Under the pieces are notes generated by a model that was not told where the DNA came from, ran no database searches, and saw nothing but the letters and a program-made list of their open reading frames with translations. Shown here piece by piece: positions 26,144 through 64,000 of a stretch of 64,000 nt of DNA. The position numbers and the translations under genes are program-made. Positions within the stretch are counted from its first letter, which is position 1, and each line of letters opens with the position of its first letter. The DNA lies in NCBI GenBank assembly GCA_049701195.1, contig JBNATU010000005.1, positions 9,015 through 73,014 on the forward strand, given 5' to 3'. Source of the DNA: Moorellaceae bacterium. GTDB taxonomy: Bacteria; Bacillota; DSM-521; Neomoorellales; Neomoorellaceae.

Positions 26144-26170
26144 TTAGCACTCAGGTATGTCGAGTGCTAA
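26144..26170 (-). promoter_or_regulatory. CIRCE operator (HrcA binding site) of the hrcA-grpE-dnaK-dnaJ operon
   Basis: TTAGCACTC-aggtatgtc-GAGTGCTAA is a perfect match to the CIRCE consensus TTAGCACTC-N9-GAGTGCTAA. Confidence 0.9.
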
Positions 26171-26184
26171 AAACTTTCATTAAA

Positions 26185-26213
26185 AACATAGCACCCGCCC
26201 GGCGATTTGTCAA
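26185..26213 (-). promoter_or_regulatory. Sigma-A-type promoter of the hrcA operon
   Basis: The minus strand reads TTGACA-17 nt-TATGTT, immediately upstream of CIRCE. Confidence 0.55.
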
Positions 26214-26225
26214 GCAAATTCCGCC

Positions 26226-26494
26226 CTGGTGTATCCCCACTTTTTGCAGGGGAGGCCTGCTTGGACTTGAAAGCGAGCGAACAAGCCTTCGCGGTAGTCA
26301 AACTTAATGAAGCCGAAAGCGAAGGCGGACCCGAGGCTTTTGAGAGGCCTGAGGCCGGCAACTGAGACAGGATATTTAAATTCTGCCGGGAAGTCCGCCT
26401 TAAGCTCTAAAGCTGAATGATAGTTTGGCCCGCGAGGGAAACTTTCGCGAGCGAAAGCCAAGCAGACCTAGGAGCAAAACTGGGGATACGTCAG
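26226..26494 (+). mobile_element. MITE-like element, family A, copy 1 (269 bp)
   Basis: The ends are CTGGTGTATCCCCAC... and ...CTGGGGATACGTCAG, within ~45-bp imperfect TIRs. It is flanked by a perfect 9-bp direct repeat AATTCCGCC (26217-26225 and 26495-26503). There is no credible ORF inside. Confidence 0.75.
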
Positions 26495-26553
26495 AATTCC
26501 GCCTCCTCTCCCAAGAGTGGGGATACGCCAGAATTCCGGCGGTTCGCCCGGGC

Positions 26554-39018: not shown

Positions 39019-39047
39019 ATTTTATCATGCCTGGATCCCCTACGCAA
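39019..39047 (-). promoter_or_regulatory. Sigma-A-type promoter candidate for rpsT
   Basis: The minus strand reads TTGCGT-17 nt-TAAAAT. Confidence 0.4.
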
Positions 39048-39059
39048 CGGGGTTGGCTA

Positions 39060-39447
39060 CCGAGTTATCCCCACTTTTGCCTCTAGGCCTGCTTAGCTTG
39101 CGCTCGCTCCAAAAACCCTCGCGGGCAGGACTTTTGCTCGACCTAAAAGCTTAAGGCGGGGTTCCCTCGACAGTTGGCATTCTTGCCGCCGGGCCGGTCT
39201 TAGGCCGTCTTAGGCCTCTCTATCCTAAAACCCCGCCTCCGCTTTCGGCCTCGTTAAGTTTGACGAAAGGCGAAAAGATTGGCCTGAGGCCCCAATAGCC
39301 TCGCGGACGACAACCGAGACAGGAAGTTTGAGTTCTGCCGGAAAGCCAGCTCTTTCAGCCTTTAAGCCCCGTAAAAGTCCTGCCCGCGAGGGAAGCCCTA
39401 AGCGAGCCGAAGCCGAGCCCTGTAAGAACGGGGGGATGATAACTCAG
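39060..39447. mobile_element. MITE-like element, family A, copy 2 (388 bp, rearranged head-to-head)
   Basis: The ends are CCGAGTTATCCCCAC... and ...GGGGGGATGATAACTCAG. Both outer arms carry the same arm type (GCTCGCTCCAAAAACCCTCGCGGGCAGGAC and its reverse complement). The flanks GGTTGGCTA and GGTTAACTG match at only 6/9. Confidence 0.6.
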
Positions 39448-41035: not shown

Positions 41036-41172
41036 CAGTGCTGACACATAAAAAATCGCTATCCACCTTATCTGTCAAAGATTTGTGTCTGAGATTTTTG
41101 CGATAACAAGTTTTGCGTGTTCCTCTGAACTTCTTCTACAATGCCGGGTTTACGATTCATGCGTCAGCACTG
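41036..41172. mobile_element. MITE-like element, family B (137 bp)
   Basis: TIRs CAGTGCTGACACAT and ATGCGTCAGCACTG (13/14). It is flanked by a perfect 9-bp direct repeat GCCTACTAC (41027-41035 and 41173-41181). Confidence 0.55.
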
Positions 41173-41190
41173 GCCTACTACATTATTCCG

Positions 41191-41319
41191 CCTTGTAAGC
41201 GAACGAGTACGCCTTCGCAGTAGCCAAACTCAAGCTCAGCGCAAGGCGGAAGCGGTTCCGAAGAAAGAAACGGCTCGGCCGGGAAGGGGCTTGCCCGTCT
41301 TAAGTTTCGCCGGAAAGCC
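41191..41319 (+). mobile_element. Truncated, degenerate family-A copy 3
   Basis: CTTGTAAGCGAACGAGTACGCCTTCGCAGTAGCCAAACTCAAGC...GTTTCGCCGGAAAGCC aligns with the interior of copies 1, 2 and 4. It ends at the transporter stop codon. Confidence 0.4.
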
Positions 41320-52577: not shown

Positions 52578-52892
52578 TCAAGATATCTCGATCTTTTCAA
52601 TGCGTACAGCCGTAAAGGGTTGACGGTGCCCCTGCTTGCGCCGGTAGTTCTTCTTGGGCTTATACTTAAAGATAATAATCTTCTCGCCCTTGCCGTGACC
52701 TTCCACCCGTCCCACCACTTTAACATTAGCGAGGTAAGGCCTGCCCACCTGTAAACCGTGGTCGTCCCTCACGGCCAGCACTTTCTCCAGCACCACGGTC
52801 TCCCCTTCCGGGACCGGCAACTTCTCTACCTTAAGGAGATCCCCCTCGCTCACCCGATACTGCTTGCCACCGGTTTCAATAATCGCATACAT
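52578..52892 (-). CDS. rplU: 50S ribosomal protein L21
   Basis: [15 protein letters not shown]-terminus. Confidence 0.95.
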
Positions 52893-53002
52893 TTTCCCTT
52901 ACTCCTCCCAAGCTAAGACTCGCCGGCCTCAGGTATCCTGCCCCTGCAGGAGTTTGAAACCTTCCCCGGGCGGTTTAAAACTTGAGCTACGCTCGCTTTT
53001 GC
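52893..53002 (-). promoter_or_regulatory. Structured 5' leader of rplU (candidate L21 leader)
   Basis: A ~110-nt leader follows the promoter. Helices read by eye: AGCTCAAG/CTTAGCT closing AAACC..GGTTT and TCCTGC-agggg-GCAGGA. The closing helix abuts the GGGAGGAG RBS. Confidence 0.45.
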
Positions 53003-53032
53003 AGTGTAGCACATCTCCCAAATGCCTGTCAA
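53003..53032 (-). promoter_or_regulatory. Sigma-A-type promoter of the rplU-prp-rpmA operon
   Basis: The minus strand reads TTGACA-18 nt-TACACT. Confidence 0.55.
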
Positions 53033-53044
53033 GACAGTCGGACC

Positions 53045-53315
53045 CTGGCGTATCCCCAGTTTTCGCTCGCAAGGCCTGCTTGGACTTGAGAGGCGAACGA
53101 CTAAACCCGAGCGGTAGCCAAACTCAAGCGTGGCGAAAGGCGAAGGCAGGCCCGAGGCTTTTGAGAGGCCCGAGGCCGGCAACCGAGACAGGATGTCGAG
53201 TTTGCCGGGAAGCCTGCCGGAGCCTTGAGCCAAGCAAAAGTCCTGCCCGCGAGGGTTTTTGGAGCGAGCTTTAAGCCCAAGCAGGCCTATAAGAACAAAA
53301 CCGGGGATGCGCCAG
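53045..53315 (+). mobile_element. MITE-like element, family A, copy 4 (271 bp)
   Basis: The ends are CTGGCGTATCCCCAGTTTT... and ...AAAACCGGGGATGCGCCAG, within ~45-bp TIRs. The 9-bp flanks are AGTCGGACC and ATTCGGACC (8/9). Confidence 0.8.
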
Positions 53316-53482
53316 ATTCGGACCCCGGCCCGCTCCCCCTCTGTTTTTTCGCCGGATTCCTTTCGCTGGTCCTCCGTTCCATCTACCCTTTCACACCACT
53401 TTCACGCCGCTTTCACTCCACCGCACTATCCGGGTGAGAAAAATTGTGGCGAAAATCATCTTCGGAAATACTTTTTAGAAAG

Positions 53483-63036: not shown

Positions 63037-63129
63037 CGCCGAAAGGAAAATGACCGGGGCTTTTTTCCTCTCCCTTCTTGCAAAATACGACAAACTCTTC
63101 CCTTACCCGCTGCACTATAGAAGTTCACT

Positions 63130-63397
63130 CTGGCGCATCCCCAGTTTTACCTCTAGGCCTGCTTGGGCTTAAAGCTCGCTCCAAAAACCCTCGCGGGCCA
63201 AACTAGCGCTTGGCTCAAGGCTCCGGCAGGCTTCCCGGCAGGATTTAAGCATCCTGCCTCAATTGCCGGCCTCGGCCATCCATGGCCTCGGGCCTGCCTT
63301 CGCCTTTCGCCACGCTTGAGTTTGGCTACCGCTCGTGTTTAGTCGCTCGCTTCTAAGCCTAAGCAGGCCTCCCCAGCAAAAACTGGGGATAACTCAG
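63130..63397 (-). mobile_element. MITE-like element, family A, copy 5 (268 bp, inverted relative to copies 1 and 4)
   Basis: The ends are CTGGCGCATCCCCAGTTTT... and ...AAAACTGGGGATAACTCAG. It is flanked by a perfect direct repeat AAGTTCACT (63121-63129 and 63398-63406). Confidence 0.8.
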
Positions 63398-63401
63398 AAG
63401 T

Positions 63402-64000
63402 TCACTCCGTTGCGCTTCCCCCTGCGCCGGTCGGGGAAAGTTGGCCGGTCAATCCGAAATACCGGGCAAAGACGTCCCGCGCCACCACTCCGGCGGAATC
63501 GCCACCATGGCTGGCATACTCGATCACCCCGGCAAAGGCGATCTGGGGATCATCATAAGGCGCAAAGGCGACAAAAATACCGTAAAAATCGCGGCTCTTG
63601 TCATCCCCCACCAGTCCCGTCTGGGCCGTTCCCGTCTTGGCCGCCACTTTTATATTCGGCGGAAAATCGCGAAAAAGGAAGGAGGCGGTTCCTTGGGAGG
63701 ATTGGGTTACGGCCAGCATGCCTTTCCGCACCTCTTCCAAAATAGAGGCCGGAACATTTACTTTTTGCACTATTTCCGGAGAATATTCCTGTTTTACCTG
63801 ACCTTCCGGAGACAGCACCCTTTTTACCAGATAAGGGCGGTAGCGGGTCCCGCCGTTAGCCAGGGTGGCTACGTAATTCGCCAGCTGAAGGACGGTATAA
63901 TTGTTGGCTCCCTGTCCGATAGAGGTATTGTAAGTATCGTATGGATGCCAGGTAGTTTCAAAATTAAAGTTGATCTCATATTGAGCCTTCAATTGGCGCA
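63402..64000 (-). CDS. mrdA: Penicillin-binding protein 2 (MrdA-like transpeptidase), C-terminal part; the gene runs off the window
   Basis: Transpeptidase-domain motifs (SIGQG, KTGTAQ) with a stop at 63402. The reading frame is open to the window edge. Confidence 0.85.
   Translation of the reverse strand, partial: RQLKAQYEINFNFETTWHPYDTYNTSIGQGANNYTVLQLANYVATLANGGTRYRPYLVKRVLSPEGQVKQEYSPEIVQKVNVPASILEEVRKGMLAVTQSSQGTASFLFRDFPPNIKVAAKTGTAQTGLVGDDKSRDFYGIFVAFAPYDDPQIAFAGVIEYASHGGDSAGVVARDVFARYFGLTGQLSPTGAGGSATE

Follow-up and report, generated by a model that had tools for sequence, protein, structure and literature searches.

The analysed stretch of DNA (the window) is 64 kb long and corresponds to C5:9015-73014 of a Moorellaceae draft assembly (labelled G000; 2.89 Mb in 64 contigs). 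Copies of a short repeat lie within it, three of which precede the promoters of hrcA, rplU and rpsT on the minus strand (Table 1). The original prediction had described the same layout at these three genes, namely an element terminus, a 9-bp target duplication, 3 bp and then a -35 hexamer. All three cases were confirmed in position and strand, with a weak duplication at rpsT, where the distal repeat agrees at only 6 of 9 positions. The prediction had also placed the element at or near the stop codon of the upstream gene, which applies to hrcA and rpsT but not to rplU, where the nearest upstream ORF ends ~230 bp away.

Downstream of the rplU promoter, the L21 leader model matches over its full length with 31.2 bits and E = 2.5e-4, just short of the gathering score (36 bits). 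The leader sequence is conserved in relatives of other genera and probably represents a divergent but real L21 leader in Moorellaceae. The rplU copy of the repeat is predicted to fold into one long hairpin (-139.6 kcal/mol, z = -8.5). An assignment of the element to a known RNA family was rejected, as nothing in the 64-kb window matched Rfam at gathering thresholds. At hrcA, the promoter is followed by a perfect CIRCE operator, and a solo terminus beyond the distal duplication is left over from an earlier insertion into this site. The fourth copy in the window abuts a TTG site unlike a promoter, with no recognisable -10 after TTGCGC.

A second, unrelated inverted-repeat element of 137 bp is present at 41036-41172, with ends CAGTGCTGACACAT / ATGCGTCAGCACTG and a perfect 9-bp duplication, GCCTACTAC. 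It has no TTG at the corresponding distance (flanks TAA-GATGCA and ATT-ATTCCG) and does not share the register. Directly adjoining it is a fragment of the main repeat (41189-41319, profile positions 98-226), and several mobile-element remnants are gathered in this spacer.

Table 1. Repeat copies, flanking promoter features and full-length insertion sequences (IS).
Feature	Location	Strand	Sequence features	Basis
rplU MITE copy, 271 bp	53045-53315	-	inverted ends CTGGCGCATCCCC / GGGGATACGCCAG; terminus GGGGATACGCCAG at 53057-53045	
rplU proximal 9-bp duplication	53036-53044	-	GGTCCGACT; distal copy GGTCCGAAT at 53316-53324, 8/9 match	
rplU spacer and sigma-A promoter	53003-53035	-	GTC 53033-53035; TTGACA 53027-53032; 18-nt spacer; TG-TACACT 53003-53008	promoter scan
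L21 leader RNA, between promoter and rplU	52906-52985	-	rplU ATG at 52892	RF00559 match
hrcA MITE copy, hemW-hrcA spacer	26226-26494	-	perfect 9-bp duplication GGCGGAATT at 26217-26225 and 26495-26503	
hrcA spacer, promoter and CIRCE	26144-26216	-	TGC; TTGACA 26208-26213; 17 nt; TATGTT 26185-26190; CIRCE 26144-26170	sequence
hrcA solo terminus	26518-26540	-	followed by third near-copy of the duplication, GCCGGAATT	sequence
rpsT copy, rearranged, 388 bp, between uppP and rpsT	39060-39447	-	sub-family with ends CYGAGTTATCCCC	profile and sequence
rpsT 9 bp, spacer and promoter	39019-39059	-	TAGCCAACC 39051-39059; CCG; TTGCGT 39042-39047; 17 nt; TAAAAT 39019-39024	sequence
Fourth window copy	63130-63397	+	duplication AAGTTCACT at 63121-63129 and 63398-63406; CCG; TTGCGC 63410-63415	
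IS copy, 1,120 bp, transposase gene internally deleted	G007:C4:17613-18732		same ends; 9-bp duplication CCTGCCGGC	
Full IS, Neomoorella thermoacetica, copy 1	CP136417.1		GGC-TTGACC after perfect 9-bp duplication	
Full IS, Neomoorella thermoacetica, copy 2	CP136417.1		TTG-TTGCTT-17-TAAAAT upstream of S20 (rpsT); perfect 9-bp duplication	
Full IS, Moorellales MAG			AGC-TTGACG	
Full IS, Logan contig			GCG-TTGACA	

Insertion register and promoter status of the targets

A profile of the repeat was made from 14 copies, and for each copy in the genome both ends were refined and the flanks were read outward. The genome contains ~60 near-full copies together with many fragments, amounting to ~196 recognisable ends. 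Copies are typically ~265 bp long (245-282 bp), with inverted ends CTGGCGYATCCCC and a 9-bp target duplication. The family has the attributes of a MITE: it is short, non-coding and present in many copies, its insertions are flanked by a target duplication and its ends match those of an IS. Recent activity is not demonstrable here because copies in this genome are at most 92% identical.

Outward offset 12 corresponds to the 9-bp duplication plus 3 bp beyond the element tip. At this offset, TTG is found at 64 of the 196 ends (fragments and solo ends included), compared with a mean of 2.8 and a maximum of 8 ends at the remaining 39 offsets (Poisson P ~8e-64). The offsets adjoining 12 have 3 and 8 ends with TTG, and the end positions of decayed copies may be 1 bp off. 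The distance of 3 bp between target duplication and -35 hexamer, which the original prediction had drawn from three genes, is thus a genome-wide peak against the Poisson null. In 39 copies both ends could be placed and the duplication matched at 7 or more of 9 positions; 37 of these have TTG at offset 12 on exactly one side, none has it on both sides, and 22 have TTGAC. The duplication is perfect in 22 of 39 copies. The consensus of the occupied sites is C (71%), T, T, G, A (63%), C (69%), with no preference at the sixth hexamer position. Column counts over the 9 bp of the clean copies reveal a weak G/C preference at the first base and no strong consensus. Genes downstream of further occupied sites encode, or are, secG, an Lrp-type regulator, a NuoE-like subunit, homoserine dehydrogenase, gatA, ileS, hslO, tadA and DAHP synthase.

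We scored a -10 element as TAnnnT at 16-18 spacing from the hexamer. This element is present at 40 of the 64 sites with TTG at offset 12 (62%) and at 23 of the 35 sites with TTGAC, compared with 129 of 842 unoccupied intergenic TTGAC sites (15%; odds ratio 10.6, p = 9e-11 for the TTGAC sites). Under crude gene calls (3,351 ORFs, by which 20% of the genome counts as intergenic), ~15% of predicted intergenic promoters with TTGAC plus a -10 are occupied, versus 1.7% of intergenic TTGAC sites that lack a -10. Together with the CIRCE operator or L21 leader found downstream, these frequencies indicate that most targets are true promoters.

The ~9-fold higher occupancy of sites with a -10 would be explained by tethering, in which region 4 of sigma-A or RNA polymerase holoenzyme at the -35 box guides the transpososome and integration occurs at the upstream edge of the complex. 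The frequency of TAnnnT among the targets, and the verified promoter contexts marked by CIRCE and the L21 leader, are consistent with such guidance. Against it, C at -36 is preferred well above its frequency in unoccupied predicted promoters (71% versus 37%, p = 2e-6), and the sixth hexamer position has no preference for A (31% versus 42%). Moreover, about one third of the occupied sites have no -10, including the site at 63410 in the window and one (C10:67530) inside the terminus of another MITE; the MITE subterminal sequence TTTTG(A/C) resembles the target motif. The alpha C-terminal domain in the holoenzyme complex occupies a region that overlaps the 9-bp target, as is textbook knowledge, and selection could also yield the enrichment of -10 elements. 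The favoured C at -36, the indifferent sixth position and the third of sites that lack a -10 suggest direct readout of the DNA motif instead. We consider guidance by bound sigma factor or polymerase unlikely and keep it under consideration because of the strong -10 enrichment; beyond the hexamer, occupancy of the promoter by sigma or RNA polymerase, DNA melting or some other DNA property of promoters could contribute.

An autonomous IS4-family partner and the register in other genomes

Searching genome G007 for the MITE end motif led to an autonomous partner, a 1.2-kb IS that shares the MITE ends, is flanked by a 9-bp duplication and carries a single ORF (359 amino acids). The transposase gene of the G007 copy is internally deleted; an intact copy in G023 encodes the 359-aa transposase. 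This protein matches NCBIfam NF033591 (transpos_IS4_2, IS4 family transposase) with 213.5 bits (cut-off 152), and the deleted G007 copy matches Pfam PF01609 (DDE_Tnp_1 type; E = 2e-9). A review of the IS4 family names a Y-(2)-R-(3)-E-(6)-K motif that surrounds the catalytic E (PMC2266710). The motif is present in our transposase, where it reads YGHRMEIEEKFKDFK, and Y254, R257, E261 and K268 are invariant across 25 homologues. A search of the transposase sequence against solved structures gave no match, so the relationship to Tn5 had to be reached by a fold search. The AlphaFold model (pLDDT 88.7, pTM 0.88) has Tn5 transposase as its best PDB matches (1MUH and 4DM0; E = 4e-11, TM 0.60-0.66 over the whole length). 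No additional domain was apparent in the model, and a Tn5-like protein without an obvious domain for asymmetric DNA reading would favour tethering. Perfect 9-bp duplications surround IS copies L061, L062, L064, L065 and L066, which, with the inverted ends, agrees with the 9-12 bp (roughly one helical turn) expected of the IS4 family. The partner is classified here as an IS4-family IS with a predicted Tn5-like fold, and the repeats, judged by sequence, are non-autonomous derivatives (MITEs) of this 1.2-kb element.

No transposase ORF was found in the assembly of the genome under study. Contig C2 starts with the final 32 bp of the IS, followed by ACCTACTAA-CTC-TTGACA, and many contigs terminate within MITE or IS copies (C2:1-32, C3:153, C12:59, C16:60, C13:2-144, C53:2-131, C46:1-208, C4:2-115 and C61:1-55). 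As many contigs end in MITE copies, the full IS has probably been lost from the draft assembly, and the repeat content is underestimated because contigs break in these copies and the transposase gene is absent. Pairs of ends 1.7-2.5 kb apart were considered as full IS candidates in this genome and rejected, being chance matches or solo ends beside housekeeping genes. Two contig ends (C39:18899 and C46:12705) share the terminal sequence CTGGCATATCCCCTTTAGGTCTGGCCTATCCGTTTGTCTCCC, probably the end of another, related IS that broke the assembly.

The MITE family also occurs in at least seven other genomes, covering four genera within the same family plus two genomes from other families. The best match per genome has TTG at offset 12 in all seven. 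In G012, 10 of 18 copies are in the exact register and four more are at offset 11, while 9 of 18 copies are in the exact register in G007, where copies are older; several of the older copies in these two genomes deviate by 1 bp. All four close full-length IS copies flanked by perfect duplications carry TTG(AC) at offset 12 (Table 1). Of two more distant IS relatives, each 47% identical, one reads GGG-TTGACA at this offset and the other (L066) lacks TTG there. The register is common to the IS and the MITE and is reproduced in several genera. In G002, which belongs to another genus, the rplU promoter at the start of a contig (L096, G002:C20) is preceded by a MITE end (...AAAACTGGGGAGTCAG), then TGCTGGCGA, ACC and TTGACA. 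With the MITE at rplU in G002 and the IS at rpsT in N. thermoacetica, orthologous promoters were struck independently.

Origin of the hexamer and repeated insertion

The hemW-hrcA spacer is uninterrupted in three genomes from two other genera (G012, G008 and G004). There, the stop codon is followed by a few bases and then GAATT-TGC-TTGACAA-17-TAT(G/T)TT-CIRCE, and the identical GAATT-TGC-TTGACAA stands after the element at hrcA in the genome studied here. Six genomes from three other genera retain the rplU promoter. Five of these relatives have no insertion there, and in them TGC-TTGACA-18-TACACT is preceded by unrelated, non-repeat DNA. Because relatives carry both promoters uninterrupted, the promoters are older, the element having entered later with a 9-bp duplication that ends 3 bp from the -35 box.

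The MITE is a near-palindrome with identical ends, its interior is oriented 20:17 relative to the hexamer, and the 9-bp duplications differ at every site. We rejected the idea that TTGAC is part of the element, or of an outward-facing hybrid promoter, since the hexamer lies beyond a variable duplication, orientation is random and empty promoters exist in relatives.

An alternative is that positive selection keeps copies at this position because their ends serve as a module with an UP-like, insulating or terminating role. A 20-bp terminus, the same in every case, lies at about -48 to -67, and the very stable hairpin might stop or process read-through transcripts. However, the element does not place A+T-rich UP-like DNA at -40 to -60; outward from -48 it supplies GGGGATACGCCAG, a G+C-rich sequence unlike an UP element. 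Likewise, no terminator-like site was found, the orthologous promoters of relatives work without the element, and the full-length IS takes the same position. Function would in any case create no register without targeting. The UP-like or insulating role raised in the original prediction found no support in the G+C-rich end, the near-even interior orientation or the search for a terminator-like site, and we regard it as very improbable.

Since the target motif survives an insertion, a second one should come to lie on the promoter side of the first copy, with the same 9-mer used again. A further terminus (at most two mismatches) stands exactly after the distal 9-mer, at offset 9, at 5 of 37 sites, compared with a null of 2.5% that applies to a looser criterion. 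In G007 the order is promoter, 9-mer, IS, 9-mer and MITE, with one 9-mer shared.

Two other arrangements of neighbouring copies were observed. A JGI metagenome contig (L071, Ga0080004_1104410) has a full-length IS between two other termini, which start 9-10 bp away from it on either side; no matching duplication is present, and the arrangement resembles piled-up elements or the product of recombination between copies. In the genome under study, two MITE copies ~1 kb apart (C22:19604-19868 and C22:20684-20953) have near-identical 9-mers and promoter flanks, GCTTAATAA-GTC-TTGACC gtgacggtattttt and GCTTAACAG-GTC-TTGACG gtgatggtatttttt, pointing to the duplication of a segment that contained both the element and its promoter.

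Target choice and its implications

The original prediction had offered selection as one explanation. As the sole cause, it would mean that insertion is essentially random and that a copy survives only where it has room between a stop codon and a promoter. Of the 3,024 TTGAC sites that lie within genes, none was noted to carry a copy (from crude gene calls and not a direct count), and many spacers are short; in relatives, for example, the hemW stop codon is ~15-25 bp from the hrcA -35 box. Selection alone cannot fix a register to the single nucleotide, given 64 ends at offset 12 and 3 and 8 at its neighbours. The register is kept where there is ample room, as at rplU with ~230 bp free upstream, and it is shared by IS and MITE across several genera. 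Nor would selection alone predict that copies stack on one shared 9-mer, or that C is preferred at -36. We therefore judge random insertion followed by selection to be extremely improbable as a full account of the register and of stacking; selection probably does account for the absence of copies inside genes and for part of the -10 enrichment.

Targeting by the transposase, also among the explanations first proposed, is retained in a sharper form: preference for promoter-bound or bent DNA gives way to a nucleotide-fixed position at C-TTGAC, which is found with the IS and in other genera as well. We infer that the transposase itself reads the DNA motif and that selection removes insertions elsewhere. 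It is likely, in our assessment, that the transpososome selects its target by C-TTGAC and that selection then filters the survivors. The transpososome would cut with the usual 9-bp stagger at a target picked by the asymmetric motif 5'-C-TTGAC-3', which starts 3 bp beyond one end of the stagger. As this motif is the -35 hexamer of sigma-A promoters, insertions would fall at about -39 to -47. They would be tolerated and accumulate because the core promoter and the downstream gene are left intact. The motif would outlast each insertion and leave the same promoter open to renewed insertion, with the newest copy always beside the promoter and older copies pushed outward, where they would decay.

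In structure, the elements are a typical MITE and a typical IS4-family member; target choice is what differs. Bacterial DDE transposons are in general described as having weak or symmetric target preferences, whereas precise homing has been associated chiefly with Tn7-like, IS110 and IS200/IS605 systems. Like IS10 and IS50 (of Tn10 and Tn5), the IS described here has a single-ORF DDE transposase with YREK, a Tn5 fold and a 9-bp duplication, and its inverted ends, which start CTG...ATCCCC, resemble the IS10 outside end. The targets of Tn10 and Tn5 have a weak symmetric consensus inside the 9 bp (for Tn10, NGCTNAGCN). No such consensus was found here, where specificity resides in an asymmetric C-TTGAC 3 bp outside the duplication. 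IS186, also an IS4-family element with a sequence-defined hot spot in a promoter region, inserts into the E. coli lon promoter at a G-run/C-run motif and disrupts that one promoter, whereas the element described here docks beside -35 boxes in general. Ty3/Ty1 and Tn7 (at attTn7) integrate upstream of transcription units or downstream of glmS, respectively, via tethering factors (TFIIIB or Pol III; TnsD). They resemble our element in their 'safe-haven' insertion at a fixed distance from a conserved host landmark; unlike them, it encodes only a Tn5-like transposase, and Tn7-like selector proteins (TnsD/TniQ, TnsC) are absent from the 1.2-kb IS with its single transposase ORF.

IS1397 and ISPpu9/10 target REP elements (PMC1525189, PMC12288879), and the ISPpu9 paper places ISPpu9 in the IS110 family. 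Such elements likewise home to a short, repeated intergenic host motif and avoid genes, but their target is a palindromic repeat and not a functional promoter element. A full-text literature search found no description of -35-anchored insertion by a bacterial transposon, and a term search of the IS4-family review did not return the word 'promoter' (PMC2266710).

A plain Tn5-like transposase appears to set its element, to the nucleotide, beside the -35 boxes of hrcA, rplU, rpsT, ileS, gatA, secG and hslO, and about 15% of this genome's predicted strong promoters are occupied. This poses a puzzle, as the transposase dimer is symmetric and the flanking motif that it would read is asymmetric. Were tethering to prove true, the elements would form an IS4-family clade with promoter-tethered integration, a bacterial analogue of Ty3 (Ty3/Ty1) at Pol III promoters. 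If recognition of C-TTGAC is true, it would represent a new gene-sparing strategy for an IS and might provide a basis for tools that insert DNA at set positions upstream of promoters. It would also provide a natural marker for promoter positions in poorly studied thermophilic acetogens, and would act as a force by which the DNA upstream of about -47, including UP elements and activator sites, is replaced recurrently at many promoters.
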